From assembly GCA_030704615.1 (NCBI GenBank), contig CM060734.1, forward strand, positions 48,856,001 to 48,920,000: 64,000 nt of DNA. Reading direction: 5' to 3'. Below are positions 5,925-57,989 of the stretch, piece after piece. The notes below the pieces were generated by a model that was not told the DNA's origin, did no database searches, and saw only the letters and a list, made by a program, of their open reading frames with translations. The position numbers and the translations under genes were made by a program. The stretch's first letter is position 1. The number at the start of each line of letters is the position of its first letter. Origin of the DNA: Takakia lepidozioides. Its lineage: Eukaryota > Plantae > Bryophyta.

Positions 5925-6519
5925 TGTCGTGCACCTAAGCATCGTGCCACAACATACATCGTTGTCCACCACACAATCTAAGCACACAATCCTAGAAATC
6001 TATACCACAATGATAAGAGAAGAGAAATGAGAGAAGTAGAAGACAATGAAAGATCTCAAAGCATGAAGCAATCACATGAAGAACAAGCCCTAGTCCTTCC
6101 AAGTGAAATCCACTCTATCACATAAACTAAGTCAAGCCAAGGGCACCTTTGCTAAAGGAATCCACCCTACAAAGCCCTCAACACACTCCCTCTCAATACC
6201 TAGAGCTATGGAGGTGAGAGAAGCTCATGGAGGCTCAACTACAAGAAGATGAGCCTCCTCAACACTCACAAGGGGAAAACCTATCTCCATGTCTCAAGTG
6301 AGGCTCGACACCTCACTTGGCATGTGAGACCAAATGAAGTCCCAACACACAAAATATAAATATAAATATCTAAAATGTCATAGTTAACTAGAAGTAGGCA
6401 ATTCTAGATAACCATGACTAAAACCATGACAGCTGTCGTGCACCTAAGCATCGTCCCACAACATACATCGCTGTCCACCACACAATCTAAGCACACAATC
6501 CTAGAAAGCTATACCACAA
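5925..6519 (-). repeat. 3' terminal B-gc-A-B repeat block of copy 1
   Basis: 86-bp B at 5925-6010 and 6434-6519 flanks a 421-bp A (6011-6431) that recurs at 16525-16945. Confidence 0.92.
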
Positions 6520-6775
6520 TCGCCCCTCTAGCTGGTGGTTAGGTCCCTCTAACTCCAGATAGCTACAAGATATAATAGCCACAGCCGTACTAAGTCCTCT
6601 ATCACTGTCCCTATTGTACTCAAACTCTATAGACCAAGAGGCCGGGTACAAGAGCAACCCCATCGTTAGTTGTCGTCTTGCAATCTGTGAACTTGAGTCA
6701 GGATCTCGTGTGTTGGTCTCCTAGTAGCTTGGCCTTGCATTTCTTGTTAGCCTTCCATGGTTGTATCCACTCCCA

Positions 6776-9700: not shown

Positions 9701-9905
9701 AATTCAATGCGAATCTCTTGACCCTTCATGCTCCTAAGTCCTTCAAACTGAAGGCAAAGCAGTTCCTGTAAGCCCTCAAGAACCGCCGTATACGTCGTCT
9801 CTCTCCTCCGGTGACTATAAGTCCAACATCAGGCTCCTAGTTGTCCTCCGTGACTGCAACCTTGAGTCCAGCAGGCTTAGAGGTAGAAGACGCGTCCCGT
9901 GGTTG
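6776..9905 (-). pseudogene. pol of copy 1: RT, RNase H, integrase, PHD finger
   Basis: Motifs [40 protein letters not shown]...CMVC, DFAGP, TDQGREF, GLAER and a C-terminal C4HC3 PHD. Broken by premature stops and frameshifts. Confidence 0.92.
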
Positions 9906-12900
9906 CTATGCTGCAACCTCTTGAGCAGTGACCACTGCCTCCTCTGTCCGTGGCAATGTCTCATCCTGCCCCATCATCCCATCCTTGAGGACCTCCTCAA
10001 CCCGAGAAAAATCCCCAACCTGATCCATCACCGCCGCCTTGGCTGCCAACTCCTTCTGAACCTCGAGCACCTCCCACGTGTGCCATGGATGCGGCCTGCA
10101 CCTCGTGGTCCCCACCTGCTCGCCCCCACTCGCTGCCTGTACCGTCTCGGTAGGCAGGGAGACCATGAAGGGAAGTGTACTCCATACTCTGCGCTGCTCA
10201 ACCATAACCAAGCTGATAATCCAGGTCAAGCAATTGAGATCCATTGCTTGCCCCAACACCTGACGACGTGATGCCTCAGAAAGAGATAGCACCGCCGTGG
10301 TACCTGTGGTAAAACCCATCGCCCGCTCGCGCTCGTCAGCATTGGGCTCCACTAATTGTTGCAACTGGCTATCCCACAAGAGGCCAGGTCCACCATCCCG
10401 AAAAGCATGGGATCCTGGGAAGCTGAGCAGTGTAGGTAATGCTGCTCGGGGTTGACCCACCCTGTTGACCACTGCCAAAGGCGAACGGTCAACGTGTCTC
10501 ACACGTTGAGACTGCCTCCCTATGTCCAAAATGCTATCCACTGTGAGGTGTGCTGGCCGCTGCACCCCATCAAATGCATGCTTGAGCAGTGCGGGTGACA
10601 TCAAGTTAGCACCATAGCCGTGGACGATGAGCCCGTGATCCCACTGCAGCTGCATCCAGCAACACTGCTGATCCAAGCCACGACCGGACTTGATGCACAC
10701 TGGCCATCACCCTGGCCCGAGAATCACCCATCAGTGGCACATTCTCCAAGATGTATGCTGGAGATACAGCTTGATGAAGCTGTAAGTGGCGCAAAACCCG
10801 CACTATCTCCCAAAACAGACCCGTCCTCGAGTCTCGCAATCCATTGCCATGCCTGGCTGATGAATGCCCTTGGCAGGGCCAACCTGCCACACCAGATCAA
10901 TGGAGCCAACCTGCTCCAAATCCTGCGCCCCCAGCAACGAAATGTCTGCTGACAAGGCTTGTTGGTATCCACGAACTGCAGACATTGGCAACAAATCAGG
11001 GTACTGCTGTACCAACTGAGCAACATGGCGCAGTGAGACGTGTCGTGCAGTCTCATCCCTCTCCACATACAGGTAACGTTGAACTCGTACACCTGCCTGC
11101 AGTACTGCAGCCAATCCAGTGCTGATCCCGCCAAACAAGTCCAGAAGGCATATGCCTTCATCCGGGCACTGCCACACAAGAGGTGTGGTGTCCAATGGCG
11201 ACAACTGAGGTGGTGCTGGTACAATCACCGCACTCTCCTCTTCTCTTGACGGTACGAAGGCCTCTACCCAGGCTTGTTGCACCCGTCCATCAGCAGCCTG
11301 CTGCAAATCCTTGCTCGTACCCCACAATGGAGTGTGAGCAACCATGGCAGGCAACTCCGCCGTACCATGCATGTCATCCTGCTCTACTAGAGGTGGCACA
11401 TCCTCTGCATGGGCATTGCCTTCCAGCAACTCTCCAGGCCAACTAACTGCAGCTGTAAAGGCGGCTAGTGTTGGCATCTTGCCCCGCTGGGCAGCCGCAA
11501 TACCCCCAATGAATGTCACAGGGAGCTGTGCACGACGACCATCCCCTGACTGCCATCCAGGCCTGTAGGATGCTGACTCCTCCCAAAAGTCCAGAGTGAA
11601 GCCCATGGGATATAACACTGCCCCACCAACAAGGACATCGTAAGAGACCGCGTCTGTCACAATGGCCTTGGCTCGCATCACTGAGCCATCTATAGGATGA
11701 TCTGGTTGTAGTCCAATGGCCAACTCACGCCGTGTCATGCCCCGAGCCTGCTCTGATCCTCCCAGAGATGTCTGTATCTGGAAAGGACAAGGCTCCATAT
11801 CCGCCTCCATGAGGCCCAAACCTGCAATAGCAGCTCTGCCCAACATCAGTGGCTGAGCTCCTGAGTCCAACAAGACCCGCAGTGGCCGGTACTTCTTGCC
11901 TGCCGGTCCACTCAAAGTGAAAATGCCTCCCTGGTTGTCTAACAAGACAACTCCAGGTGTCACCATGGCGCGCTCAAAGGCTGGCCTAGCTGGCAGCTCC
12001 GTCAACCTGGCAGCTGCAGCTTGCCATGGCGCAGCCGTGGCAGTCTTGACCCTCAAATCCGAGGATCCCTCTGCCACTACACCTTCCAGTAACTCCGCAG
12101 AAGATGAAGTGACTTCCCCACTCTCGCAAAGTGTTGCTGCTAGTCTGAACACTGCAGCTGGTCTTACCCCCGGCGTCGCAATCATGGTTGCCGAGAATAG
12201 TGGGGCTTGACACACAGAGGTGGCTGCCCCCAATAACACACCGGCTGCATTAGCCTTGGTAGCAGGTGTCAGTGTTGCACGTGTAGCTCTCCCCAATGGC
12301 ATAGTAACCTCCGCCTCGGTAACAGTCGGGCGAGAACTAGGTGCCATGGATGGTGTCGACACTGTCTCCACCAATGTGAATGACTGAGGAAGCCTCGCCT
12401 GACGGCTTGCCTCCCCACGCTGTGGATCCAATTCCACTTCTGCACCTCGTGGCTCAGGAACTCGTGCTGCTCGTTGAGTCACGGCTGCAGCAGACTCCAC
12501 CTGCACTAGTGGTAGTGCTGCTCCGCACATGAATCCCATGCCTCTCATATCTCCTCCCTCAGAAGCATGAGCTGTAGCCATGGCAGTGAGCCTCTGCTCT
12601 AGCTGCTGAAGCCGGTTGGCCATGTCTTGGTCAACACCCTGACCTCCGCGTCCTTGGCCATGTTGAGCTTGCCCTTGGCCTGCACCTCGTGCCCGACCAC
12701 CTCGTCCTCTCTGGGCTGGTCCACCTCGCCCCCGGCCACCATTGTTCCCTTGGAACTGGCCTGGGCGCAACTCAGGGTGCAAGTCATAACACTGGGCATC
12801 TCCATGCCCATACTTGCCACAATGCCCACACTGCAACTGTGCAGGCTGTGCTTGTGCCGGCCTTCTGCCACTCTCTGGGCAATCTCTCTTGACATGGGGT

Positions 12901-14040
12901 CCTCCACATGTCCAACATATCACCCCTGGTTGCTGTTGGCCTGCAAAAGATGCCACGGGCCTCTGCACCTGAGGTCCCCTGTAAGCTCCATGGAATTTGG
13001 GTTGGGAAACCTTGCCCCCTGACCACGCTGTTGGGCAGTCCCTTGTGCCTGTGGGCTGGCAGCTGCGCCTCGTGCAGGCATGTCCTTGCCAAATCCAATG
13101 GTAACAACTCGCTCCTCCACCATGTTGAGCTCAATCCGCTCAGCCAGCAGAAACACATCCGCTAATGTGGGTTGGGCCGCTTGTAACAGGGTTGCATCCC
13201 GCACCCTTCTCCTGAGCTCCTTGTCCAAAATTCCATACCAGAATTGGACTGCCTGAGCTTCAGTAACCCCTTGGGTCACACTTATCAAGCGCCTCATACG
13301 AGTGTAGGCCTCTCGCAAGCTCTCACTGGATTTGCGCTGGAAGTCTTGCAAACTTCGCAGCTTCTCTGTCCTACACCTTGGTAGTTCCTCCGCAACTCCT
13401 GAAAGAACTCCACCACCGGGTTGAATCTAGGCACATGTGTTGTAGTCGTGGCAGGAGGAGTAGTAGCATCTTTTGAACTGGTACCACCTGCAGAAGTACC
13501 GACACTACTTGTTCCACTACTAGTGCTTGTAGTTGGAGATGTTTGTGTAGCTGCTGGTGTCACCGCTGCCTTGTGCCTCTAGTGATTGAGACATAGTTAG
13601 GTGACCAATACTCTCGCCACTCCTCAATCTCCACCGCATGTCCCCGCCTAAATTCATGGTAATCATCTATGGGCGGCCTCTCAAGGTGCTGGAATAGCCC
13701 CTTCCATGCCATAAAGGGCGTAAACAGTTGTGGATTGCGCATTTGCTGCAAATCACACCAACTGTCAAACTCTTATATAAAGTCATCAAGCTCGATGGTG
13801 CCCATAGCTCCAGAGTACCTACGTGGCCCCTTGGTAGCTCCATACATCTCCTCCATCGTGTCCCACAACAATGGCACGGAAATGACTTGCACCCTCGGCG
13901 AGAATCCTCCTGACTCCGAGTCTGAACCTTCCTCAGAAGACACTGAAGGTGAAAGTGGCCTAAACCGCACACCTTGTCTTGTGTACCCACTAGTATCGCT
14001 GGTGCTCGTACCGGCACTCCCCTCAGCAGCTGGTGGCACC
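9906..14040 (-). pseudogene. gag-protease-cytosine methyltransferase ORF of copy 1 (frameshifted)
   Basis: Zinc knuckles, LLDSGA protease, LDLFGG, AGWPCQ, ILENV, RAHRPR, ERERAMGF and RRQVLG are spread over ORFs 9906-10700, 10606-10890, 10803-12968 and upstream fragments. Confidence 0.9.
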
Positions 14041-14820
14041 TCCGTGATGAAAACTCACAACCCAACCGGTTGTCAACCTGTCTCTAATCCCCACTTTCTA
14101 CAAGGTAACCGGGTAAAGAACCTGTTGCGGCTACTGGTTCAAGCAGGAATAATAGGTTTCTAACGTAGACCTGTACCTGCACCTGCATCCACCGCAAGCA
14201 CTCCTATGGTCTGCTGGTCATCAACCCAGCCTCACCATAGAAGAAACACTGGTGGTCTTGCTGGTCATCACTCCAGCCTCACCACCGACAACATACTCTA
14301 GGATTGGCCGGTGATCAAATCCGGACCAACCTCCTATGAAAACAAGCGCCCACACAAAGCTAACATGGCACACAGTCAAGCATGCAGGTGTGGAGGGGAT
14401 CCAAACACAAGAAAATCAAGACAGCAACTCCCCCACACCAAAAACACTCCACAGTGTCGCTCCTGCAAGGACACCCCAGCCCAAACCCGGACTGACTCTT
14501 GCCTCCACCTACGGAAAGGTTTTGGCCTACAGAGAGGGTGAAAACTATGGAGAAGAGAAACTAAAGCAATTCCTAACCCCAGAATGCTCTCATCCCACCA
14601 CTCTCCCTCCTGTCTCTATCCACTCGCTTGTATGGCCGTGGCAAGTATCCTTCAATATCCCTCAATCAATCCTTCAAGAGCTCTTCAACATTGTCCACCA
14701 AAGCTCCTCGAAGGGTCCTCCAAGGACCCCAAAGATCCTCCAAATACTCCTCCAAGGGCCCTCAAATATCTTCCAAACAATCCTCCAAAGGCCCTTAAAT
14801 TTCACTAAGTCCTTTCACTA

Positions 14821-15215
14821 TTGATACCTTAACAGAGGTATAGTCTGAGGTTGCTAGGGTCCCTTATGTTGATGATACCTTTACAGAGGTATAGTCTGAA
14901 AATGAGGGTTCTGTTTGGTATACTAACAGAGGTTAGTCTGAGCTGATTAGGGTCCACATATGGTGATACCTCAACAGAGGTATTGTAAAAGGGACAAGCT
15001 CCTGTTTGGTATACTAACAGAGGTATAGTCTGAGCTGATTAGGGTTCACATATGGTGATACCTCAATAGAGGTATAGTAAAATGGACAAGCTCCTGTTTG
15101 GTATACTAACAGAGGTATAGTCTCACATTAGGGTTCACATATGGTGATACCTCAACAGAGGTATAGTCAAAGGGACAAGCTCCTGTTTGGTATACTAACA
15201 GAGGTATAGTCTGAG
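14821..15215. repeat. Tandem repeat (~45-bp subunits, ~90-bp higher-order period) in the leader of copy 1
   Basis: Recurring (g/t)atac(c)t(c)aacagaggtatagtc core, about 9 copies. Confidence 0.85.
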
Positions 15216-16524
15216 CATACACTACTAGGGTTTGTAATGAAGAGCTAGAATGCAAGTCCTTGACTTCTATGCTTCTACTCAAGCAAAAATATGGTCTCTA
15301 GGTGGTCATAAGAGGCATCTTCTTGCTCTCTTCCACCCCAATGTGCAACCAAGAGTGGTCCAACTCAACTTGCAAGTCATTGTCCACCAAATCAATCCCC
15401 CTTCTAGTCCTTGGGATTTGATTGCAAACTACCATATCTCCATTGCCGAGCAATCATGCATTTGTCTCCTCATCACTTGACAATTGCTCCAAATCAACAC
15501 AAATTATCTCAATGTGTAGGAGCAATGCTTGTCACTTACAATAATGCTCCCAAGCAATCCGCCTTGGATCCCACTCTCACGCCATATGCCTCATTTGGGG
15601 TCTTGCACCAATCCATCATCCATGTGCTCCCCGTGGTCATTTGAATGCATGTTTCATGACCTCTTGGCCTATGTGTTGCTCTCCTTCATCATAACATGAA
15701 TCAACACCTCTCCACTTCACACACAAATGGATCTCAAAGGCCTTCATCTCTTGCTAGTTCAAGAGCTCCCCTTCTCAAACTTGAACTTACAAACTCAAGC
15801 GAGCATGCTCCACACATGCACCACTTGCTTGGTCAACTATCCACCACAAAGCTCGCACTACCAAGAGCATGAATAGCCAAGTATTGCCTCCTCCTCTTGT
15901 CACATTACATAGTTAGGGTGAAGCTATGCATACATTGAATGATGATTTCCCTTCAAGGATTTCCCACCACATGTTCTCCAAGCCCTTCCAACGGCACCCT
16001 AAGCTTGGCTCCACACCACCATGATTGGAAGATTTCTTCACATGCTCCCTTTCAAAACCTCTTGAGCTTCTTAGTGCTCTCCAAGTGCTTGCCCTTGTTG
16101 TCTTCAAGCCCAAGCATATATAGCTCCTTGGCTTCTCTTCCACAACATCCACACTTTGAACTTGCTTAACCCTAGCTTGATAGTGAAATGAGCACTAACA
16201 AGCCTTTAGTCACTCTCCACAAGCCATGGCGCACACCATCGACTCCATAATGCATACAAAGGATTCTCAAACCCTAGAATCCATGCTTCCACACACACAA
16301 GACTTCCTCCTTACAATCCTTGCAAAATCTTGTGACTCAAGAGCTTTCTTCTCAAGCTCTCCAACTCCTTGTTGCATGCAATACTCGAGCACCCTTCCTT
16401 GCAACCCCTTGCAAGCCTTGTGATATAAGAGCTAAATTCTCCTAGCTCTCAACCTCTTTAAAATACAAGTGCAAAACTAATTCTTATACTCCGCACTCAC
16501 AAGCATAAGGTGATCTTCTTGTAG

Positions 16525-16945
16525 TGATAAGAGAAGAGAAATGAGAGAAGTAGAAGACAATGAAAGCTCTCAAAGCATGAAGCAATCACATGAAGAACAA
16601 GCCTTAGTCCTTCCAAGTGAAATCCACTTTATCACATAAACTAAGTCAAGCCAAGGGCACCTTTGCTAAAGGAATCCACCCTACAAAGCCCTCAACACAC
16701 TCCCTCTCAATACCTAGAGCTATGGAGGTGAGAGAAGCTCATGGAGGCTCAACTACAAGAAGATGAGCCTCCTCAACACTCACAAGGGGAAAACCTATCT
16801 CCATGTCTCAAGTGAGGCTCGACACCTCACTTGGCATGTGAGACCAAATGAAGTCCCAACACACAAAATATAAATATAAATATCTAAAATGTCCTAGTTA
16901 ACTAGAAGTAGGTAATTCTAGATAACCATGACTAAAACCATGACA
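16525..16945 (-). repeat. 5' terminal repeat A1 of copy 1
   Basis: Matches 6011-6431 with few substitutions; reads TGTC...TTATCA on the element strand. Confidence 0.92.
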
Positions 16946-23159: not shown

Positions 23160-23506
23160 TGTCAAGTTAAATAAGCACAGTGTGAAAACAGCTAGAATAA
23201 AACTAGTTATTTGTATTTAACACTTGGAGTTAGGTCAAGTGTTAAATCAGGTGTCAAGTTTAGTTTGACACCTGGTCTGTCTTATCTTCACGAGAGCGGC
23301 AGTCGCGCAGCTCATCTCTCTCGAGTTGAGCCTGCGCGACCGAGCTCCTGCATGCGTTTAGATCTGAGTGTACTCATGATGGGAGTGTAGGTTGTTGTGG
23401 GGTGGAGTCCCCATAGCTTGGGGTGCCCCTGGCTCGACTTCTATTTCTAAGAGTGATGGTTTGGTTTTCATGCTTTGCATCGTGTGTGACTTTAGCTTGC
23501 TTATCA
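23160..23506 (+). repeat. 5' terminal repeat A1 of copy 2 (347 bp, TG...CA)
   Basis: No differences seen by eye from 34766-35112. Confidence 0.95.
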
Positions 23507-23522
23507 CTCGAGAGAGATGAGC
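23506..23522 (+). promoter_or_regulatory. Putative self-priming primer-binding site
   Basis: ACTCGAGAGAGATGAGC is the exact reverse complement of 23310-23326 inside repeat A. No TGG tRNA-type PBS is present. Confidence 0.75.
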
Positions 23523-25815
23523 CTATCTAGTTTTCTAGTGCTAAGCTAGATACAATGTTCTTTTAACACTATTATAATATATAACTTGGGGCAGGAGCCC
23601 ATCTAGTCCTGCTGTTGCCATGGGTTTGCGCTTGTTGTTTACACATGGGCGTTGGTGGTGATCAGGGTGTAGTTATCCCTGTTTTGTGGTGGCGGGTGCG
23701 CGCGGGGGCCCTAGTAGCCTGCTGCCTGAGCGCTGGGGCAGGCTGAGCACCCAGTAGGCCAGTCGTGCCCAACTTGTGTGGTCCGTTGTGTTGCAGCTCA
23801 AGAAGGGCCATTGGCTTGTAGCCCATTCTGGCTTGCAGGCATATTGCTGGATTCACCGTGACCTGTAGCGCTGATGGTTTTATTTGGCGGGAGCGGTAGC
23901 TTGTCAAGAACCAGGTTGGCATGAGTGTAGAAATTGGTCAAGTTGGCCCAAGTCCTTGGTGATGGGGTCTTGCAGTGACCACTGAACTGTCTGCCTGCAT
24001 CTGTGTTGTTGTTTGCCCCTGTGCGGAGTCTCCGGACGTGCTGTCGACGGGTCTCGGCGTTGCGCACTCGTGTATGGTGTGAGTAGTGAAGGTCGAACGA
24101 GAAGCAGAGCGCGCTGGATGGCGGGGCGCAGGGATGCACCATCTCTCCCATCTGTTGTTCCGTTGTTTTTATGGAAACACTTTGTTCATCAGTTGTTTTT
24201 GTTTGGATCAAGAACCGAGGGTGCAGAACAAGCCTTCCACATCTTGTGGTGCTGGGGAGGCAGCGGACGAGCAGAATGTGATTGGTAATGTTGGGGGACT
24301 GTAGAGAGGGGTTGAGAGATGTACTCAAATGGAGCAGCAGATTATGGTTTTCACTGATGCGTGATGCTTGCTTGCTAACTGCTTGCTTGCTGACCAGATT
24401 AAGGACTGGGTTATGGAGTTGAAAGCGGGATCCTACTTGTCAAGGCCCAAGTGCAGAGTCCCTTCCAAGTGGTAGCTACGCCTCCTACGAAGCCTTCAGG
24501 GATCCCAACAAGACTAGGTCATAACACTTCGCTGTTTCTGTGTGCGGGTATTCTATGCACCGTGAATTGTCTTTTGGCTTGACCAGCACCTAGTAATCTG
24601 GTCGAAGAAGGGGCCCTTTTGAATATCTGGCATGTAGGTCAGCACTGGAGCATGGAACAGCGCTGACTGGAGTTCTTTAAAGATCCTTCACAATGGTGCG
24701 ACTGCAGCTTTGGCAATATGCTTTATGTAGAACGTGAAGGAGTCTGTCAGGGAGGATATTTACTGACTCGGTTATGGTGAACTGGATTGTACCCCTAGTG
24801 GTTGAATGACGTAAGAGTCTTGGTTTCTCCTCGGAAAGAGGCTCTTACTGTCAGCAGCTTAGGTTGCTCTTTCTAAGCAGGGTAGGGAAGGAGGAAAGTT
24901 GGGGTTTTTCCCTTGCAGCTGGCAAGGTGCTTAGAATGGTTAAACAGCCATCCTCCGTGATCGGTTCTCTATATTGTCTTTGGAACCGTAGCCCTACTCA
25001 CTGCCACACAGATTGATCAGCTAGCTCTCGGACTTGAAGCCAGTGGACAACAGTTCTTTGGGGTTTTGAGAGCCCCTGCTAGTAAGCAAGGATCAGAGGA
25101 CAGATCTGCCACAAAGCCAGGCACATTGCCGAGTGGTCGAGGCACGCGTACTTCCGTGCACTGCAGCTGGGTTTCCACATAGCCGACAGGCTTGAAGAAA
25201 GGTCCCAGCTGGGGATCACTCAATTTGGACACTGCTAAGCTGGTGTGTGGGGCAGGCTTTGCAGGAACTTGCTTGCCAACTTTACTTCAATGAAACTTGT
25301 GAGGGTGCCAAGGTGAAGTGTTGCTAAGGGGAAATGAGCTCCACGACCTCCATTGTCACCATGGTTTGTGGTAGAAGACGGTTGGGATTCCAAAGCATGG
25401 TGAGCTGTTGAACTCAAATGAAATGGAGGGGAACAGCAGGCACGTGGCCAGGGAACCTAGGATGCCATATAGAACTTAGGGAACCGGGAACCAGTTACCA
25501 GACATTTTGGGTGTAACTTTAAATTGTTAAACTTGAAAACCTTTAAAAAAAAAAAAAACCCTTTTTAATCTAATTTGAATGATTTGGAGCCAAATTCATC
25601 ATATCTTTGTCAAATGGACTCTGGTTGACCCAGTTTTTGGGGGATAGCTGCAGAAAGGGGAAATCTACCTATCTAAACCTGGTTTCTGCTTTGGGGACTC
25701 TGCTAAAAATCTATGGAATTTTTAGAGTGTGAGAGTGCCATGAAAGATCCACAATCCTGTCTCTAGAACCTGTGCTGGTCTATATGAGAGACAAATTGGT
25801 GGATGTACTCCATGC

Positions 25816-26565
25816 ATGGCTGGGGGAAATGAGGACGTAATTGAAGGGCAGGTCTCTTCTCTTAGTCTGTGCACACAAGGGGACACGATTTATGTTTCCC
25901 AAGGAACTCAGACTGATTTGAGTGGAGAACAGTTGGACGAGTTGATTGCATACTGGGAGTCAGGCATTAGCAGTAGACAACAGACTGCTGTAGTTGGCAT
26001 TGAGGGCCTCAATATCGCCTTGGACAGTCAGAACTCTGTTGGAGCCAGCAGTTCTGCAGCTGTAGGTGAAATACCAAAGTGGGTGAAAGCTAGGCTTGGA
26101 ACACAGCCAAAGACAGCCCCGGGGACCAAGGTGTTCAGCCACAAGGCCGTGGTGTACTGGAGCAGAGGAGCAGGAGCTGCACAAGTTTGTGCAATTAGAC
26201 AGTGTTGCAGTCGGACACGCTCTGCACAAGGCAACCACGAGCGGGGGTTCATTAGCGAGGACAAGTTTGTTCTGTTTGAAGGCGATGCAGTCATTCGCAA
26301 TGAAGACACCCGCAATCGTCTCAAAGCTTTCGAGTTGAGAGACTATCAGACCCTACCTTTGTTTTCTTTAGTGTTCAGTGAGCGGGAGATAGCAGAGTGT
26401 TGCTTTGTCTCTACCTGGCAGAAAGAGGAGGAGGGTTGGTTAGAGCGAGCTACTGTAGCTTGGGACAAGGTTAGTGGCAGGTTTCTGGACATAGATATAC
26501 CTCCTACACCTTACCATCAAGCAGAGCGAGGCACTTTGAGAGAAGTCTGGAAGTTGATAGCATAG
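25816..26565 (+). CDS. Accessory ORF of unknown function in the leader of copy 2 (249 aa)
   Basis: Uninterrupted ATG-initiated ORF, sense to gag; no motif recognised. Confidence 0.45.
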   Translation: MAGGNEDVIEGQVSSLSLCTQGDTIYVSQGTQTDLSGEQLDELIAYWESGISSRQQTAVVGIEGLNIALDSQNSVGASSSAAVGEIPKWVKARLGTQPKTAPGTKVFSHKAVVYWSRGAGAAQVCAIRQCCSRTRSAQGNHERGFISEDKFVLFEGDAVIRNEDTRNRLKAFELRDYQTLPLFSLVFSEREIAECCFVSTWQKEEEGWLERATVAWDKVSGRFLDIDIPPTPYHQAERGTLREVWKLIA

Positions 26566-27084
26566 ATCAGGATTAGATCTTGCTTGGGCGGGCTTCTATT
26601 CTTCCCCTCCATCTCTGTACTATTTTCATTACCTTGTACTTGTAGTTGCCAAAGCCTCTCTTGGTGGAGGCCAGTCAGTCCGGGGTTTTGGGCTGGGATA
26701 TTCTGCAGGATCAGCGTTGCTGCTGGATTTTGGTGTGGGGGTGTTGATGTTTTGATTTCTTGTGTTTGGATCCCCCCCAACACCTGCATGCTTGACTGTG
26801 CGCCATGTTGGTTTTGTGTGGGCGCTTGCTTTCATAGGGATTAGGCCGGATTTGATCACCGGTCAATCCTAGAGTATGCTGTCGGTGGTGAGGCTGGAGT
26901 GATGACCAGCAAGACCACCAGTGTTTCTTCTATGGTGAGGCTGGGTTGATGACCAGCCAACCATAGGAGTTCTTGCGGTGGATGCAGGTGCAGGTGCCCT
27001 GAGCCATTGGGATATGACCCTTAGACTGCAACAGGTGCCCACCCGTGTCACTATTAGATTAGTACTAGAGCCTTATAGTGTCAC

Positions 27085-30000
27085 GTGGAGGAGGTGCACA
27101 TTGTGAGTGTCATTACGGAGTTACCCAAGGGTTTTGAGGGGAGTACGGCTACAGGCAGTAACAGTGAGAGTGGGTTCACAAGACGAGGTATTCGGTTCAG
27201 ACCACCTTCACCGCCACCCTCAATTACTGTAGAGTCAGACACAGACTCGGAGGCTTCATCAACAGGTGTGCACTTTCATTCGCCATTGTTGTGGGACGAC
27301 ATGGAGGAGATGTATGGAGCTACCAAGGGGCCTCGTAGGTACTCTGGAGCTGTGGGCACAATCGAGTTGGATGACTTTATCCAGGAGTTCGACAGCTGGT
27401 GTGATTTGCAGCAGATGCGCAATCCACAGCTATTCACCCCATTCATGGCGTGGAAGGGACTGTTCCAGCATTTGGAAGGCCCGCCTATGGACGATTACCA
27501 CGAGTTCAGGCGAGGACATGAAGCAGAGATTGAGGAGTGGAGGATGTATTGGTCACCTGACTACATCTCCATTACTCGAGGCACGACGCGACCAGTAGCT
27601 GCATCAGTACCAATAGCTCCCACTGCCAGCACTAGTAGTGGAGCAGGTAGTGCTGGTACTTCTGCAGGTGGTACCAGTTCAGAAGGTGCTACTACTCCTC
27701 CTGCCACAGCTACAACACATGTGCCTAGATTCAACCCGGTGGTGGAGTTCTTCCAGGAGTTGCGGAGGAACTACCAAGGTGTACGGACAGAGAAGCTGCG
27801 AAGTTTGCAAGACTTCCAGCGCAAACCCAGTGAGAGCCTGCGAGAGGCGTACACTCGTATGAGGCGCTTGATAAGTGTGACCCAAGGGGTTACTGAAGCT
27901 CAGGCAATCCAGTTTTGGTATGGAATTCTGGACAAGGAGCTCAAGAGAAGGGTGCGAGATGCAACCCTGTTACAAGCAGCCCAACCCACATTAGCAGATG
28001 TGTTTCTGCTGGCTGAGCGGATTGAGCTCAACATGGTGGAGGAGCGAGTTGTTACAATTGGATTTGGCAAGGACATGCCTGTACGGGGCACAGCTGTCAG
28101 CCCACAAGCACAAGGGACTGCCCAACAGCGTGGTCAGGGGGGCAAGGTTGCCCAGCCCAAGTTCCATGGAGCTTACAGGGGACCTCAGGTGCAGAGGCCC
28201 GTGGCATCTTTTGCAGGCCAACAGCAACCAGGGGTGATATGTTGGACATGTGGAGGACCCCATGTCAAGAGAGATTGCCCAGAGAGTGGCAGAAGGCCGG
28301 CACAAGCACAGCCTGCACAGTTGCAGTGTGGGCATTGTGGCAAGTATGGGCATGGAGATGCCCAGTGTTATGACTTGCATCCTGAGTTGCGCCCAGGCCA
28401 GTTCCAAGGGAACAATGGTGGCCGGGGGCGAGGTGGACCAGCCCAAAGAGGACGAGGTGGTCGGGCACGAGGTGCAGGCCAAGGGCAACCTCCACATGGC
28501 CAAGGACGCGGAGGTCAGGGTGTTGACCAAGGCATGGCCAATCGGCTTCAGCAGCTAGAGCAGAGGCTCGCTGCCATGGCTATAGCTCAGGCGGTACCGG
28601 CTCCCAGGCGGGATGGCCCACCTCCTGCTCCTGAGGGAGGAGATATGGGCGGCATGGGATTCATGTGCGGAGCAGCACTACCATTAGAGCAGGTGGAGTC
28701 TGCTGCAGCCGTGACTCGAGGAGCAACACGAGTTCCTGAGCCACGAGGTGCAGAGGTGGAGTTGGATCCACAACGTGGGGAGGCAAGCCGTCAGGCAAGG
28801 CTGCCTCAGTCATTCACCTTGGCGGAGACAGTGTCAACGCCATCCATGGCACCTAGTTCTCGCCCGACTGTTACCGAGGCGGAGGTTACTATGCCATTGG
28901 GGAGAGCTACCCGTGCAGCACTGACACCTATTACCAAGGCTAGTGCAGCCGGTGTGTTATTGGGAGCAGCCACCTCTGTGTGTCAAGCCCCACTGTTCTC
29001 GGCGACCATGATTGCGACGCCGGGAGTGAGACCAGCTGCAGTGTTCAGACTAGCAGCAACACTCTGCGAGAGTGGAGAGGTCACTTCATCTTCTGCGGAG
29101 TTAGTGGAAGGTGTAGTGGCAGAGGGATCCTCGGATTTGAGGGTCAAGACTGCCACGGCAGCGCCCTGGCAAGCTGCAGCTGCCAGATTGACGGAGCTGC
29201 CAGCTAGGCCAGCCTTTGAGCGCGCCATGGTGACACCTGGAGTTGTCTTGTTAGACAACCAGGGAGGCATTTTCACTTTGAGTGGACCGGCAGGCAAGAA
29301 GTACCGGCCACTGCGGGTCTTGTTGGACTCAGGAGCTCAGCCACTGATGTTGGGCAGAGCTGCTATTGCAGGTTTGGGCCTCATGGAGGCGGATATGGAG
29401 CCTTGTCCTTTCCAGATACAGACATCTCTGGGAGGATCAGAGCAGGCTCGCGGCATGACACGGCATCAGTTGGCTATTAGACTGCAGCCGGATCATCCTG
29501 TAGATGGCTCAGTGATGCGAGCCAAGGCCATTGTGACAGACGCGGTCTCTTACGATGTCCTCGTTGGTGGGGCAGTGTTATACCCCATGGGCTTCACCCT
29601 GGATTTCTGGGAGGAGTCAGCATCCTACAGGCCTGGATGGCAGTCAGGGGATGGTCGCCGTGCACAGCTCCCTGTGACATTCATTGGGGGTATTGCAGCT
29701 GCTCAGCGGGGCAAGATGCCAACACTAGCCGCCTTCACAGCTGCAGTTAGTTGGCCTGGAGAGTTGCTGGAAGGCAATGCCCATGCAGAGGATGTGCCAC
29801 CTCCAGCAGAGCAGGATGACATGCATGGTACGGCGGAGTTGCCTGCCATGGTTGCTCACACTCCGTTGTGGGGTACGAGCAAGGATTTGCAGCACGCTGC
29901 TGATGGACGGGTGCAACAAGCTTGGGTAGAAGCTTTTGTACCGTCAGGAGAGGAGGAGAGTGCGGTGATTGTACCAGGGCCACCTCAGTTGTCGCCATTG

Positions 30001-31286
30001 GACACCACACCTCTTGTGTGGCAGCGACCGGATGAAGGCATATGCCTTCTGGACTTATTTGGCGGGATCAGCACTGGATTGGCTGCAGTGCTGCAGGCAG
30101 GTGTACGAGTTCGACGTTACCTGTATGTGGAGAGGGATGAGACTGCACGACGCGTCTCACTGCGCCATGTTGCTCAGATGGTGCAGCAGCACCCTGAGTT
30201 GTTGCCGGTGTCTGCAGTTCGTGGATATCAGCAGGCCTTGCCAGCAGACATTGCGTTGCTGGGGGCGCAAGATTTGGAGCAGGTTGGCTCCATTGATCTG
30301 ATAGTGGCAGGTTGGCCCTGCCAAGGGCATTCATCAGCCGGGCATGGCAATGGATTGCGAGACTCGAGGACGGGTCTGTTTTGGGAGATGGTGCGGATTT
30401 TGCGCTGCTTGCAGCTTCATCAAGCTGTATCTCCAGCATACATCTTGGAGAATGTACCACTGATGGGTGATTCTCGGGCCAGGGTGATGGCCAGTGTGCA
30501 TCAAGTCCGGTCGTGGCTTGGGTCAGCAGTGTTGCTGGATGCAGCTGCAGTGGGGTCACGGGCTCATCGTCCACGACTATGGTGGACTAACTTGATGCCA
30601 CCCGCACTGCTCAAGCGTGCATTTGATGGGGTGCAGCGGCCAGCACACCTCACCGTGGATGGCATTTTGGACACAGGAAGGCAGTCTCAACGTGTGAGAC
30701 ACGATGACCGTTCGCCTTTGGCAGTGGTCAACAGGGTGGGTCAACCACGAGCAGCATTACCTACACTGCTCAGCTTCCCAGGATCCCATGCTTTTCGGGA
30801 TGGTGGACCTGGCCTCCTGTGGGATGCTCAGTTGCAGCAGTTAGTGGAGCCTAATGCCGACGAGCGAGAGCGGGCTATGGGGTTTTCCACTGGGACCACG
30901 GCGGTGCCTTCCTTTCTGAGGCATCACGTCGTCAGGTGTTGGGGCAAGCAATGGATCTCAATTGCTTGACCTGGATTGTCAGCTTGGCTATGGCTGAGCA
31001 ACGTAGAGTGCGGAGTGCACTTCCCTTGACGGTCTCTCTGCCTACCGAGACGGTACAGGCAGCGAGTGGGGGCGAGCCGGTGAGGACCACGAGGTGTAGA
31101 CATCCATGGCACATGTGGGAGGTGCTCGAGGTTCAGAGGGAGTTGGCAGCGAAGGCAGCTGTGATGGATGAGGTTGGGGATTCTTCTCGGGATGAGGAGG
31201 TTCTCAATGATGAGATGATGGGGCAGGATGAGGCCTTGTCATTGACTGAGCAGGAAGGGGGTACTGCTCAAGAGGTTGCAGCATAG
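27085..31286 (+). CDS. Gag - aspartic protease - C5 cytosine DNA methyltransferase polyprotein (one 1-nt frameshift near 30913)
   Basis: 1294-codon open frame with CWTCGGPHVKRDC and CGHCGKYGHGDAQC knuckles, an RGG tract, VLLDSGA and DNMT motifs at about 30030-30960. Copy 1 shows the frame continuing to QEVAA-TAG. First ATG is at 27301. Confidence 0.9.
30031..30960 (+). other. DNMT3-like cytosine-5 methyltransferase domain
   Basis: Motif I LLDLFGGISTG; II YVERD; IV DLIVAGWPCQ (PCQ 30316-30324); VI YILENV (ENV 30448-30456); VIII RAHRPRLWWTNL; IX ERERAMGF; X RRQVLG. Confidence 0.92.
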
Positions 31287-34200
31287 CAACCACGGGACGG
31301 TCCTCTACCTCTAAGCCCACTGGACTTAAGGTTGCAGTTACGGAGGACAATTGGGAGCCTGACATTGGACCCATTGTCACCGGAGGAGAGAGACGACGTA
31401 TACGGCGGTTCCTGAGGGCTTACAGGAATTGCTTTGCCTTCAGTTTGAAGGACTTGGGAGCACTGAAGGGTCAAGAGATCCGTATTGAGTTGGCCACTGA
31501 CACGCCAATCTTTCGGAGACCCTATAGATACAGTGACATGGAGAGGTCTTTGATTCAGATGAGGACTCAAGATCTCTGGGAGGCAGGTTTGGTGGAGCTC
31601 TCTGGTGGAGAGTATGCTTCAGCCACAGTGATGCCAGCTAAGAAGGATGTCTATGGCAATTGGACGGAGAGACGTATGTGCGGTGATTACCGGCCTGTAA
31701 ATCGTCAGACCAAGTCCGATAGGTATGCCATGCCAACACCAGAGGAGATCTTTGATGCCATTGGGCATTCCAAGGTCTTTAGCACGTTGGATTTACGATC
31801 CGGATATCACCAGTTGCCGATCAAGGAGGCGGATAAGCAAAAGACGGCATTTGGGGGATCAATGAGCACGGGAAGGATTGCCTATACCAGTGGCGGTTCT
31901 TACCATTTGGGCTTAAAAACGCTCCCGCTGAGTTTCAAAGAGTCATGGACAGGATTCTAGCAGGGGTGGAGTTTGCTCGGTGCTACATAGATGACATCAT
32001 CATCTTTAGTGCTGCGGTGGAGGAGCATGAGAGACACCTTCAGGGGGTATTTGAGCGCTTGAGGACGCACGGATTGAAGTTACATCCGGGCAAGTGCAAG
32101 TTTTTCCACAACCAGATTGAGTATCTGGGTCACATGATATATCCTGGAGGATTGGGGGTACAGCAGACTAAGGTAGAGTCCATTGCACAGGTTCCACGTC
32201 CCACGGATGTGAGCCGAGTTCGAGCTTTCATGGGGTTAGCAAACTATTACAGACGGTTTGTTAAGGGATTTAGTGCCATTGCAAAGGCTCTAACCAAGCT
32301 GACCAAGGTGGACCAGGAGTGGCAGTGGGAAGATGAGCAAGAACAAGCTTTTCAAGAGCTCAAGGCGAGGTTGACCTCGGCGCCCATCTTGAGACGACCT
32401 ATCAGGGGGCGTCCCTTTCAGCTGCATACAGATTGGAGCATGCTGGGGCTTGGAGCGGTGCTCACACAGGTGGATGATGAGGGAAGAGAGTTCGTAGTGG
32501 CTTATGCTAGCCGCTCGAACAATGCTGCAGAGTCTAAGTATAGCTCATATGAGGGAGAATGCTTAGCTGCAGTGTGGGCCGTGGCACACTTCAGGTGCTA
32601 TTTATACGGCAATCTCTTCACCCTTGTCACGGATCACCAACCACTCAAGTGGTTGATGGAGTCAGACAAGCTTACGGGGAAGCTTGCACGGTGGGCACTC
32701 ATCCTTCAAGAGTATGACTTTCAGGTGGTGCATCGACCGGGTTTGGTCAATCGAAATGCAGATGGGTTGAGTCGCAATCCATGCACGAGCCAGCAGGATG
32801 ACACTGGAGCTCGGTGGCATGGTGAGACGGACGAGGAGATGGTGCCCGGATGGCATGCATCTGCATTTCTGTGTATCTTGGCAGCGGAAGGCCAGGTTGG
32901 ACCTACAACAGGGATGACTGTAGATCAAGTGTCTGAGGACCCTGAGGCCAGCAATGAGCAGGGTGGCGCCAAAGATATACATGAGGATTCAGTTGTGTTG
33001 GACTACCTCCGCAGTGGAGACACGGCAGCCACTATGACTGCCAAGGAGAGGGATCGGATCCTACAACGAGCCAAGAGGTTCAGGTGGGAGGGGACACACC
33101 TGCTTCGAGTGTGGGAGGATGGTCGAGTGAGGATTGTGCCTCACCCAACACAGCGGGCACGGTTAGTGCGGCATGCCCACGAGGAGTTGGGGCATTTTGG
33201 GGTGCGACGCACCCATAGTCTACTGCAGGGGCAGTATTGGTGGCGTGGTATGCACACAGAGGTGCAACAATTTGTGGCTAGGTGCATGGTGTGTGACAGG
33301 GTGCGTGCTTCATTCAACGCCCCTACTCCACAATTGCACCCTCTTCCGATCATGGGATTGGGCTACAGGTGGAGTCTTGACTTCGCAGGGCCGTTGCCAC
33401 TGACCATGCGCCACAACAAGTACGTGTTGGTGATGGTGGAGCACTTCTCCAAGTGGATTGAATTGGTTCCATTGCCTGATAAGGCTAGTGAGGGAGCTGC
33501 GTATGCATTCTTGGATTGTGTGCTTAGCCGATTCGGTGCTCCAGCTGAGGTACTCACGGACCAAGGGAGAGAGTTCTTGGGGGAGTTTCAAACTTTGTGT
33601 GACAAGGCCTTGATAGACCACCGCACCACTTCTCGGGATTATCCTGAGGCCGATGGCTTGGCAGAGAGAGTTGTTCAGACAGTAAAGAGGGGTTTGCGCA
33701 AGTATGGCTTGCAGAAGGGACACCTAGGAGATTGGGACCTTCAGTTACCCTGGCTAGCCATGGGCTACAGGTTCAGCAAGCAAGCATCACTTGCCTCCTT
33801 CTCACCATACTTTCTTCTCTTTGGCCGAGAGCCGGATTTGCCTACATCCATTCGCAGAGAAGCTGCTACAGTTCTTAACCTTGACGATCCGGACGTGTGG
33901 GCACGTGCATGTGAGCAGCGTGCAGAGTTGTTCAAGAGAGTCATGCCCATGGCTTTCGAGAACCTTGCCATTGCACAACACCGTGATACGTTGAGGTATG
34001 CTACCATACGTGGTGGGGGCTATCGTCCTGGGGTTCGGAGATTCAACCCTGGTGACTATGTCTATCTGCAGCAGACTGCTCCTACGACCCTGGATGTGAC
34101 TGCAGGACGTGTTATTTTGAGGGTTCGAGAGGTCTTGCCCTCAGGCGTCTTGGTCTTGGAGGGTCGGGATGGCATAACTTGGAAGGACCATGTGCGTAAT

Positions 34201-34419
34201 TGTGCGCCATGTCACCTTCCGAATGTCGATGGCAGGATTGACCCAAACCTGGCAGTGGTATCTGCAGGTTTGAGGTGCATGTTGTGTGGGTCTGCTAAAG
34301 GGGCAGCCACCATGCTGGTGTGTGATCGATGCTCTAGAGGTTGGCATATGGGATGCTTGACTCCACCTCTTGAGATGGTTCCAGATGGGGATTGGTTATG
34401 TCCACAATGCATTGGATAG
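31287..34419 (+). CDS. Pol: reverse transcriptase - RNase H - DDE integrase - PHD finger (1-nt frameshifts near 31299 and 31853)
   Basis: YIDD; TDWS/EGE/TDH RNase H; HHCC; D-D-E (DFAG, TDQG, LAER); PHD at 34276-34416. Gypsy domain order. Confidence 0.92.
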
Positions 34420-34667
34420 TGGGAGTGGATACAACCATGGAAGGCTAACAAGCAACGCAAGGCCCAGCTACAGGATACCTTGAATACACGAAGGCCTGGC
34501 TCAAGTTCACAGATTGCAAGACGGCGACTAACGATGGGGCTACTCTTGTACCCGGCCTCTTGGTCTATAGAGTTTGAGTACGATAGGGACAGTGATAGAG
34601 GACTTAGTACGGCTATGGCTATTACGTCTTGTAGCTATCTGGAGGTAGAGGGACCTATCCACCAGCT

Positions 34668-34677
34668 AGGGGGGCGA
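34668..34677 (+). promoter_or_regulatory. Polypurine tract directly upstream of B1
   Basis: AGGGGGGCGA; the equivalent sequence sits at the same position in copies 1 (from 6520) and 3 (from 48487). Confidence 0.7.
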
Positions 34678-35198
34678 TTGTGGTAGACTACTTTATTGTG
34701 CATATATGTGTGGTGTGGTTCGGACAGCGATGTAGTTGTGTAGCGATATGTATGCGCACGACAGCTGTCAAGTTAAATAAGCACAGTGTGAAAACAGCTA
34801 GAATAAAACTAGTTATTTGTATTTAACACTTGGAGTTAGGTCAAGTGTTAAATCAGGTGTCAAGTTTAGTTTGACACCTGGTCTGTCTTATCTTCACGAG
34901 AGCGGCAGTCGCGCAGCTCATCTCTCTCGAGTTGAGCCTGCGCGACCGAGCTCCTGCATGCGTTTAGATCTGAGTGTACTCATGATGGGAGTGTAGGTTG
35001 TTGTGGGGTGGAGTCCCCATAGCTTGGGGTGCCCCTGGCTCGACTTCTATTTCTAAGAGTGATGGTTTGGTTTTCATGCTTTGCATCGTGTGTGACTTTA
35101 GCTTGCTTATCATTGTGGTAGACTACTTTATTGTGCATATATGTGTGGTGTGGTTCGGACAGCGATGTAGTTGTGTAGCGATATGTATGCGCACGACA
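34678..35198 (+). repeat. 3' terminal B-gc-A-B block of copy 2
   Basis: B1 34678-34763, GC 34764-34765, A2 34766-35112, B2 35113-35198. Confidence 0.95.
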
Positions 35199-46904: not shown

Positions 46905-48743
46905 AGTTGGTATTCTCAATGGCTGAGATCTTATTCCAGCTGCAATCCTGGAGGAAAATGCCAATCCAAAGGCCAAGAGAATTTTTGAGAGGAGTCAGGA
47001 GAGCTTGAAGCCTGTGTTTGTGATGAATCCAATGATCTGGAGATTCCAGGCTGAATGAATGAACGACTCTCGAGTTTCTGGCAGGAGTCAGGGCTCAAAA
47101 CCATAGATTTAAGAACCTTAAACCCTGGACGTTGGGAAACGGATGACCATTCAAACTCTGCCATACCGTGCTTGTTACTTTTTCCTGGAACTGATGTCAG
47201 TTATAGAAGTTGAATGGAAGGACCGTGTCTTAGCTATTGACCACTTTCGGATGCAAGGACACCTAACATGGGGCTATCATCAACTTCTTCAGCTTTCAGG
47301 AAGAGTCCATCTACCTAGGCTTTGTTTGATATTATTGTAAAACGACTGGTGCATCCCTGTTGGTGATTCTCAGCAGTTTCAGATGTCTAATTGGAGCTGT
47401 AGTAAGAAGCCATGTGAGACTGTGCTGCCAATTTCTCTCCATGCTTCATTACTCCACAGCTGAACAGAAAGAATTGGGTGGATCAGCATCAAACTGGAGA
47501 ATTAAGGCATGACAGTGGACATGACTTGTTTCTTGTTGGGATTTTAAGTTGTGAAATGTGTTTCAGAGTTTGAGGAAGTGATGTACACTGAGGGTTCCTC
47601 AAGTAGACCAAAGGATTACATCTTTCCAGAATTCGCTGCGAAGTTTGTTTACACTCTCCTCAAGAAAGAGTGTGTTGGCACTACAGAAGCCTAGGTTCAA
47701 TCTAGGAGGACTGCCTGATACTGTTACAATCAATTACAGGGCAAGACAGATGTGATGATCCCTTGCTGAGAGAAGGATCACTACCAGAAAGCCTTAGGAG
47801 CACAAGAAATCCATTTTGTCAATTAACATCCTTTGAAGGAAACACCGGACCGGCATGATGTTACTTGTAAGAATTGTGGGTGGACTGGTCCAAGTAATGG
47901 GACTGAAATTGGGGATCAGAAGCATTCCAAGGGATCATTTTCTATATGACGTGTAGGGGGGCTGTTGTGCGCATATGTATCGTTACACAACTACATCGCT
48001 ATCCAAACTATACCACACATATATGGACAATAAAGTAGTCTGCCACAATGGATAGAAAACTAAAATCACACTGTTGACACAAGAACATGAAATACAACAC
48101 CATCACTCGTTAAACTAAGAGTCAAGCTAGGGGCACCCCAAGCTATGGGGACTCCACCCCACAACATCTTATTTTCCCTTCATAAGCACACTCAGATTCT
48201 AAGCAGTGAAGGAGCTCGGACGTGCAGGCTCAACTCGAGAGAGATGAGCTGCACGACTGACGCTCTCATGAAGATAAGATGGTTCAGGTGTCAAGCTAAA
48301 CTTGACACCTGACTTAACACTTGAACTAAATCCAAGTGTTAAATACAAATAACTAGCTTTATTCTAGTTAGTTTCACACTGTGTTTATTTAACTTGACAG
48401 CTGTCGTGCGCATACGTATCGCTACACAACTACACGTTGTCCAAACTACACCACACATATATGGACAATAAAGTAGTCTGCCACAATCGCCCCCCTAGCT
48501 GGTGGATAGGTCCATCTAACTCCAGAGCTACAAGATGTAATAGCCACAGCCGTACTAAGTCCTCTATCACTGTCCCTATTGTACTCAAACTCTATAGACC
48601 AAGAGGCCGGGTACAAGAGTAGCCCCATCGTTAGTCGTCGTCTTGCAATCTGTGAACTTGAGCCAGGATCTCGTGTGTTCAAGGTCTCATAGTAGCTTGG
48701 CCTTGCATTTCTTGTTAGCCTTCCATGGTTGTATCCACTCCCA

Positions 48744-49633
48744 CTATCCAATGCAATGCGGACATAACCAATCCCCATCAGGAACCATCTCAAGAGGTGG
48801 AGTCAAACATCCCATATGCCAACCTCTAGAGTATCGATCACACACTAGCATGGTGGCTGTCCATCTAGCAAACCCACACAACATGCACCTCAAACTTGCA
48901 GGTATCACTGCCAGGTTTGGATCAATCCTGCCATCGACATTCGGAAAGTGACATGACGCACAATTACGCACATGGTCCTTCCAAGTTATGTCATCCCGAC
49001 CCTCCAAGATCAAGACGCCTGAGGGCAATACCTCTCGAACCCTCAAAATAACACGTCCTGCAGTCACATCCAAGGTCGTAGGAGCAGTCTACTGCAGATA
49101 AACATAGTCACCAGGGTTAAATCTCCGGATCCCAGGACGATAGCCCCCACCACGTATGATAGTATACCTCAACGTATCACGATGTTGTGCAATGGCAAGA
49201 TTCTCGAAAGCCATGGGCATGACTTTCTTGAATAACTCTACACGCTGATCACATGCACGTGCCCACACGTCCGGATCATCAAGGTTAAGAACTATAGCAG
49301 CTTCTCTAGGAATGGATGCAGGCAAATCCGGCTTTCGGCCAAAGAGAAGAAAGTATGGTGAGAATGAGGCAAATGATGCTTGCTTGCTGAACTTGTAGCC
49401 CATGGCTAACCAAGGTAACTGAAGGTCCCAATCTCCTAGGTGTCCCTTCTGCAAGCCATATTTGCGCAAACCCCTCTTCGCTGTCTGAACAACCCTCTTT
49501 GCCAAGCCATCGGCCTCAGGATGATCCCGAGAAGTGGTGCGGTGGTCTACCAAGGCCTTGTCACATAACACCTGAAACTCTCCCAAGAACTCTCTCCCTT
49601 GGTCCGTGAGTACCTCAGCTGGAGCACCGAATC
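48744..49633 (-). pseudogene. Integrase C-terminal half plus PHD finger of copy 3
   Basis: FGAPAEVLTDQGREF...CMLC...CDRY...HMGC...WLCPHC; contains a premature stop. Confidence 0.9.
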
Positions 49634-55427: not shown

Positions 55428-55432
55428 GAATC

Positions 55433-57706: not shown

Positions 57707-57989
57707 CCGGTCATGAATTTGTTCCTAACCCCCTCTCCACAAGGTAACCGGGTAGAGAACCTGTTGCGGCTTATGGTTTGGAATACTAAGTTCCTAACAT
57801 AGCCTACACCTGTACTTGCATGACCATGGGAATATCATGAAGATACTTATCAAACCGCCCTCCACAAGCTTCAAAATTCGGCCTTCAAGACCACATGCCA
57901 GTCCTTAGGCAGTCCACCAGTGCCTCCACGAGTCAGCACAAGCCGTCCACAGGTCAACACGGGCCACCACAGACCAGCACAGGCCCACA

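Follow-up and report, generated by a model that had tools for sequence, protein, structure and literature searches.

A Ty3/Gypsy retrotransposon family in the moss Takakia lepidozioides with a DNMT3-like methyltransferase domain and rearranged ends

The window analyzed here, a 64,000-nucleotide stretch of the Takakia lepidozioides genome (contig CM060734.1, positions 48,856,001 to 48,920,000), contains three insertions of one Ty3/Gypsy retrotransposon family (Table 1). Copies 1 and 2 have different 4 bp target duplications and are independent insertions; the coding region of copy 2 is 92% identical to that of copy 1, with several indels. In copy 3 an internal deletion extending from the protease to the middle of the integrase has removed the methyltransferase domain described below, and a chromovirus is nested inside the element. 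Both methyltransferase-bearing copies are broken by frame damage, which in copy 1 includes three one-base gaps (near positions 30911, 31299 and 31851) despite 100% identity within its repeat pairs A1/A2 and B1/B2. Family contigs carry the extra base at all three gap sites (32, 32 and 26 contigs in run X1, and others in runs X5 and X9), indicating that some family members have unbroken frames; the gaps of copy 1 may be true or may be assembly errors. The family is highly abundant, with 33,133 contigs of a single run mapping to 3 kb (a measure of contig depth rather than copy number).

Copies 1 and 2 form a mosaic in which dS declines from 0.36 (Gag) to 0.04 (integrase), and their A and B repeats are 70% and 79% identical, respectively. 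The combination of falling dS and divergent repeats suggests recombination between subfamilies. The window also holds a chromodomain Gypsy family (2125–22529 and 49660–55427, both on the minus strand), one member of which contains copy 2 while another is nested in copy 3; four tandem LTR copies of this family, spaced ~1.09 kb apart, occupy positions 18565–22529. A tandem array of 10 and 51 bp units (58031–58831) lies in the 5' region of copy 3. Host genes are found at 36859–39400 and 46065–46904 (plus strand): one has introns and, as read by eye, a plastid-transit-like start, and the other encodes a class I SAM methyltransferase (Methyltransf_11, E 1.5e-13). Just past the target duplication of copy 1 are 18 bases (35203–35220) that resemble the start of A plus a piece of B. 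No joint spanning an empty site was found among contigs aligned over the element and its flanks.

Table 1. Coordinates of the three element copies and of their features, as positions in the window.
Feature	Position	Strand	Description
Copy 1	23160..35198	+	Whole Ty3/Gypsy element, TG...CA ends, layout A-internal-B-GC-A-B
Target duplication, copy 1	23156-23159 and 35199-35202		CCAA, 4 bp
Repeat A1, copy 1	23160..23506	+	347 bp, identical to A2
Self-primer (predicted)	23310..23325	+	At inferred RNA 5' end; complementary to 23507-23522
Primer-binding site	23507..23522	+	Just behind A1; predicted to pair with the element's own RNA, not a tRNA
ORF1	27079..30969	+	1296 aa between stops; encodes Gag, two CCHC knuckles, protease and the greater part of the methyltransferase
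Aspartic protease region	29224..29688	+	LLDSGA at 29320-29337; Pfam weak, E 0.079
Methyltransferase, copy 1	30031..31010	+	DNMT3-like C5 cytosine methyltransferase; motif X beyond one-base gap near 30911
LDLFGG, copy 1	30049-30066	+
GWPCQ, copy 1	30310-30324	+
ILENV, copy 1	30442-30456	+
RAHRPR, copy 1	30559-30576	+
ERERAMGF, copy 1	30862-30885	+
RRQVLG, copy 1	30927-30944	+	Frame differs from the other five motifs
Leaky stop (predicted)	31284..31292	+	Conserved TAG, then CAA CCA, between ORF1 and reverse transcriptase
Reverse transcriptase and RNase H	31370..32796	+	YIDD; one-base gaps near 31299 and 31851 in copy 1
Integrase	33097..34056	+	HHCC finger and D,D(34)E core
PHD finger	34276..34416	+	C-terminal
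Polypurine tract	34664..34676	+	Adjoins B1
Repeat B1, copy 1	34677..34763	+	87 bp, identical to B2
B-A junction	34760..34769		Palindromic GACA-GC-TGTC, repeats both element ends internally around a 2 bp spacer; predicted integrase site
Repeat A2, copy 1	34766..35112	+
Repeat B2, copy 1	35112..35198	+
Copy 2	5925..16945	-	Layout as copy 1; target duplication GCTC
Methyltransferase, copy 2	10251..11162	-	Two indels
Copy 3	47963..62304	-	Ends as copies 1 and 2; target duplication GCCC

Pfam matches place the coding region in the Ty3/Gypsy order (Gag, protease, reverse transcriptase, RNase H, integrase), and its best solved relative is Ty3 Gag-Pol (E 3e-74). The presence of an rve integrase sets the element apart from the DIRS/PAT/Ngaro class, which is defined by a tyrosine recombinase and the absence of a DDE integrase. 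The integrase core (33559–33666) has a D-34-E spacing that is one residue shorter than that of the neighboring chromovirus; this is a family-wide property, found in 95 of 98 pattern matches. In place of the C-terminal chromodomain of chromoviruses such as Tcn1, the polyprotein ends in a PHD finger, the closest solved relatives of which are the fingers of CHD4, PHF12, KDM5 and ATXR5. Several of those fingers read unmodified H3K4. Copy 1 alone has an additional ORF of 248 residues (25819–26565, plus strand), which lies in its 5' region where contig depth is high and has no match in Pfam, the window, the loci or the Atlas; the same region of five of six metagenome elements contains no ORF of at least 100 residues.

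An earlier note on this DNA had placed a C5 cytosine methyltransferase inside the Gag-protease reading frame, and this was borne out: Gag, two zinc knuckles and the LLDSGA motif lie upstream in the same frame, and a search of that ORF against the Pfam DNA_methylase profile gave an E value of 1.5e-12 (score 48.1 bits, cut-off 22), indicating that the domain is not a chance resemblance. Motifs I, IV, VI, VIII, IX and X occur in canonical order with the catalytic Cys, Glu and Arg. All six had been read as being in frame, which is correct for five of them in ORF1; RRQVLG (motif X) lies in a different frame of copy 1, past the gap near 30911. The proposed position between protease and reverse transcriptase also stands, but the frame does not continue between the two, being interrupted before the reverse transcriptase by an in-frame stop (31284–31286 in copy 1) in both copies. 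The second insertion that the note had reported, at ~10240–11162, is independent, lies on the minus strand (motifs running from 11144 to 10251) and has its own target duplication, but its domain is damaged by the two indels.

The best solved relative of the domain by sequence is DNMT3A (E 2.5e-9), with DRM2 and HhaI (~9e-4) behind it. A fold model was made of the intact homolog from Calypogeia fissa, which is 74% identical and was aligned with 37 relatives (pLDDT 94.5). That model superimposes on DNMT3B with a Z score of 28.8 (rmsd 2.6 over 271 residues), followed by DNMT3A (27.6), M.MpeI (25.5), DNMT2 (20.7–22.2), DNMT1 (19.2) and ZMET2 (18.1), and a Foldseek search with the same model likewise placed DNMT3 nearest. 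Judged by sequence and by the modeled homolog, the domain is a non-permuted, DNMT3-like C5-methyltransferase, in agreement with the earlier reading.

The catalytic Cys, the Glu of ENV and the second Arg of RxR are kept in all 38 aligned rows. Across 80 metagenome loci (chosen by conserved patterns, so that the presence of the domain in all 80 was selected for), the Cys is kept in 77 of the 78 that cover it and the Glu in 76 of 80, while the two Arg positions are eroded in individual copies (intact in 48 and 62 of the 80); motif IV of the far clade has EC instead of PC in 36 of 40 loci. Between copies 1 and 2 the dN/dS of the domain is 0.26 (bootstrap interval 0.12–0.44), next to 0.29 for RNase H and 0.27 for integrase; within this region the motif X helix gives 0.26 and the methyltransferase tail 0.63. 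Comparisons between subfamilies gave 0.10–0.14 (five pairs, two of them near saturation) and far-clade pairs 0.18–0.32 (four pairs), whereas close pairs in the near clade, which are young copies of one host, gave 0.37–0.56 for the methyltransferase versus 0.29–0.41 for the reverse transcriptase (five pairs). These ratios indicate that the domain is under purifying selection and, with the near-complete retention of the Cys and Glu, uphold the suggestion that it is a family trait. We regard it as highly probable that the domain is a selected and active methyltransferase.

The stop of ORF1 reads TAG CAA CCA in both copies, and in copy 2 the reverse transcriptase frame runs on from it. Of 27 near-clade loci inspected (20 of them picked for showing the stop), 23 have TAR CAA CC at the corresponding position, and all three loci of the next clade have TAG CAR TYA; in the far clade, 11 loci are open from the methyltransferase to the reverse transcriptase, with no stop. 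The read-through context of tobacco mosaic virus is UAG-CAR-YYA; the ORF1 stop has a similar context, but the near-clade variant CAA CCC lacks its last A. The conserved stop is likely to be leaky, which would put the enzyme at the level of Gag: because the stop precedes the reverse transcriptase in this clade, the methyltransferase would be made with Gag, and the reverse transcriptase, RNase H, integrase and PHD finger would be reached by read-through. A Gag-level dose is not a requirement, given the far clade without a stop and the chlorophyte elements with the methyltransferase inside Pol.

A domain search returned 56 matches, including by name 15 from Marchantia polymorpha, one from Calypogeia fissa and one from Sphagnum fallax, and a search from a distant homolog returned 239 proteins, with Monoraphidium and Haematococcus among the few organisms named in the best 120 of the 239. 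Proteins of 3108–5000 residues yielded one match, and viral contigs yielded short matches only (24–53% identity). Two layouts are seen, with the methyltransferase either between protease and reverse transcriptase or between RNase H and integrase: 108 of 217 fetched proteins read RT-RH-DNMT-INT-PHD, and 36 read Gag-PR-DNMT with no reverse transcriptase behind. The chlorophyte algal relatives have the second layout, inside Pol. Quick trees of the methyltransferase and of the reverse transcriptase–RNase H region, built on a subset of 51 elements having both domains, agree with each other (distance correlation 0.69, with none of 999 permutations as high), and the set with the methyltransferase before the integrase forms one side of a starred branch in both. 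For this sample of methyltransferase-bearing elements, the trees are most simply read as a single old acquisition with a single relocation, and their agreement makes a new, independent capture unlikely within the sample. The lineage reaches from chlorophytes to bryophytes, and the family described here most likely belongs with the algal element to a single ancient lineage.

Rather than being bounded by two complete LTRs, copy 1 has the layout A-internal-B-GC-A-B, and the general form of this arrangement (A-internal-B-NN-A-B) recurs in the three window insertions and at several distant loci. The TGTC...ACA ends are flanked by a 4 bp target duplication in nine of ten full elements, consistent with the TG...CA ends and 4–6 bp duplications of Ty3/Gypsy elements. 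The B-A junction follows the pattern [GA]ACA-NN-T[GA]TC, with a spacer of GC in eight matches (seven distinct), AC in four, GT in two and TC in one. The polypurine tract lies directly before B and the primer site directly behind A, so that by standard LTR chemistry the copied unit would be B-GC-A. A1/A2 and B1/B2 diverge in step within all seven elements compared, while differing between subfamilies. The true LTR appears from these sequences to be B plus A, opened at the internal palindrome GACA-NN-TGTC, and the A2-B2 joint of copy 1 resembles what the joined ends of a linear cDNA would look like.

The primer site pairs with 13–17 nucleotides inside A in seven of 11 elements (matched by none of 200 shuffles for each); the pairing is weak in two and absent in the other two. 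Four different sequences form it, indicating covariation, and in copy 1 it lies within the lowest-energy fold (z −4.3). We predict that it represents self-priming of the Tf1 type.

Several loci carry variant ends. An A-internal-B element with its own 4 bp target duplication is present at L022:5979–14618, and five more loci (L009, L034, L069, L074 and L077) end after B1; this form would fit either insertion of a one-LTR circle or recombination between B1 and B2. At L057:14767–14796, an A2-B2 joint lacks most of B2, which fits what end-joining would leave. Both the L022 insertion and the resected L057 joint fit integration of a permuted donor. The mirror form, A-B-A-internal-B, which a symmetric two-LTR circle would be expected to yield, was found at none of 21 left ends (20 distinct); such a circle alone is therefore insufficient. 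Palindromic LTR-LTR junctions are cleaved by the foamy virus integrase (PMC1180852). Taken as sequence, the rearranged ends suggest integration by a route that departs from the textbook LTR scheme.

We lean, modestly, toward an overall reading in which the enzyme is packaged at Gag-like amounts and methylates new cDNA, and the D-34-E integrase inserts a permuted, probably circular donor. The element RNA would prime its own reverse transcription; the enzyme would likely be packed into the particle in Gag-like amounts and likely cut free by the protease, with the reverse transcriptase, RNase H, integrase and PHD finger supplied by read-through of the stop. Reverse transcription would produce a B-GC-A LTR at both cDNA ends, and the enzyme would methylate the newly made cDNA before insertion, most likely at CG. 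The cDNA ends would then join at A-B, and the integrase would open the donor at the first B-A palindrome, GACA-GC-TGTC. If each strand were cut after CA, the result would be CA-3' ends with 2-base overhangs, the recessed ends that integrases use. The opened donor would insert in the observed arrangement, which is a permutation of a two-LTR cDNA, and the pre-methylated copy would arrive resembling host DNA. On its own, the permuted-donor route seems to us reasonably probable; new cDNA as the substrate of the methyltransferase is a choice with slightly better than even prospects.

CpG depletion was considered as a sign of self-methylation and rejected: the copies have values of 0.48–0.53, but the host gene region has 0.55. 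The neighboring chromovirus has 0.86–0.92 and unrelated reverse transcriptases of the metagenome loci 0.32–0.55, and the low values in host genes and in these unrelated sequences make the measure non-diagnostic.

Alternatively, the enzyme might work on host chromatin, either during insertion or afterwards, with the PHD finger serving as a reader, and set the methylation of the target or of the new copy. The methyltransferase and PHD finger co-occur in both architectures, the finger is nearest to those of the chromatin proteins named above, and the chlorophyte clade has the methyltransferase adjoining the integrase, all of which would suit such a role; in the clade studied here, however, the stop separates the methyltransferase from both integrase and PHD finger, and for the latter the comparison of copies 1 and 2 gives no indication of constraint (dN/dS 1.38, interval 0.3–4.6, 55 codons). 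We consider this role unlikely. Methylation could also serve as a switch for the element ends, marking or protecting one B-A palindrome so that the integrase opens only the other, a proposal we hold to be rather improbable. It would supply the asymmetry that the missing mirror form needs, split ends have already been noted together with a methyltransferase in KnitGypsy-Dnmt3 (see below), and the end of B is rich in CG: its last 45 bp contain 1–5 CG (median 4) versus 1.0–1.9 in 45 bp of internal sequence, and B1 terminates in CGACA in six of seven elements. Those values come, however, from seven elements, several of them related and all methyltransferase-bearing, with no chlorophyte DNA among them.

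A non-DNA role, such as RNA methylation or nucleic-acid binding in the particle, would agree with the predicted Gag-level expression, with the replacement of PC by EC in many relatives and with the inactivity of the Klebsormidium enzyme in yeast (below), but the fold is nearer to DNMT3 than to DNMT2 and the catalytic Cys and Glu are nearly invariant; we give it little credence. A last alternative, a neutral passenger or an artefact of assembly, which the broken window copies and the gaps of copy 1 beside its identical repeats might suggest, is refuted by the conservation data, namely dN/dS well below 1, coverage by contigs of four runs, and recurrence in named liverwort, moss and algal proteins as well as in the loci selected for it.

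Beyond the favored reading of packaging, cDNA methylation and permuted-donor insertion, we tentatively raise a broader possibility: an ancient Viridiplantae-wide Ty3/Gypsy lineage might have left the standard LTR route, its integrase opening end-joined cDNA at a palindrome as in the circles of some bacterial insertion sequences, and its DNMT3 domain marking the cDNA to choose the junction or to pre-methylate the copy. If true, this would be a retroelement with its own modification system built in, and Marchantia would make it accessible to genetics. Why a retrotransposon should keep an enzyme that hosts use to silence it has been asked since 2018, with examples only in hard-to-study algae; the presence of the lineage in Marchantia polymorpha makes that question testable with methylation mutants. 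Annotation is affected as well: software that searches for paired LTRs would likely mistake A1 and A2 for the LTRs, overlooking the target duplication. Elements of this kind probably also account for some bryophyte genes annotated as 'DNA methyltransferase'.

The earlier note knew of no characterised land-plant family of this kind, and our literature search also found no description. No bryophyte methyltransferase-bearing Gypsy family and no integrase-driven split-repeat insertion was found in the literature covered, which had most subscription papers and Repbase outside its scope, and the passages searched in PMC6453930, PMC9516144, PMC10952607, 10.1101/363937, PMC9940879 and PMC3350952 mentions no such land-plant family. 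Two later papers, PMC12344493 (citing the 2018 paper) and 10.64898/2026.05.21.726589, mention a 'streptophyte' retrotransposon DNMT3. Three features were not found in that literature: the conserved and likely leaky stop, the covarying self-primer, and the A-internal-B-A-B ends with 4 bp duplications.

The host enzyme PpDNMT3, as described in the text of Yaari et al. 2019 (PMC6453930), has a DNMT3-type catalytic domain, which is shared with ORF1, and a C-terminal DUF3444, for which ORF1 has no Pfam match; no host DNMT3 sequence was among the matches of the domain searches. Gypsy-7a_cRei of Chlamydomonas is a green-lineage Gypsy element with a PHD finger, in common with the window family, and a methyltransferase is not among its domains as listed in the text of Craig et al. 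(PMC9940879). Tcn1 and the Tf1-Sushi chromoviruses, for which Tf1-type self-priming in seed-free plants is described in the text of Neumann et al. 2019 (PMC6317226), share the Ty3/Gypsy order and self-priming; by that description they have a chromodomain and two ordinary LTRs, whereas the window family has a PHD finger, a methyltransferase and split ends, and its reverse transcriptase–RNase H region is 36–38% identical to that of the chromovirus in the window.

The methyltransferase-bearing elements of algae are the nearest comparison, and both are taken from the article text of de Mendoza et al. 2018 (PMC5890265). The SymbioDIRS-Dnmt3 elements, whose enzymes methylate CG in yeast, share the Dnmt3 domain and the A-coding-B-A-B repeats but have a tyrosine recombinase, where the window family has a DDE integrase, 4 bp target duplications and TG...CA ends. 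KnitGypsy-Dnmt3, reported from one alga, Klebsormidium nitens, is a Gypsy element with DIRS-like repeats and an intronless, non-permuted Dnmt3-like domain under purifying selection in its Pol ORF; its enzyme gave no methylation in yeast, a test that the authors call inconclusive. The parts of that text considered here do not mention target duplications, self-priming, a PHD finger or the integration route, and no named Klebsormidium protein was among the matches listed in the domain searches. Compared by description rather than by sequence identity, the window family shares with KnitGypsy-Dnmt3 the Gypsy domains, the intronless Dnmt3-like domain under selection and the DIRS-like repeats; it differs in that its methyltransferase closes the Gag-protease ORF before a conserved stop, rather than lying in the ORF of the reverse transcriptase, and in its occurrence in liverworts and Sphagnum. 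We therefore conclude that this kind of element is already known, from KnitGypsy-Dnmt3, and is extended here to land plants and chlorophytes.
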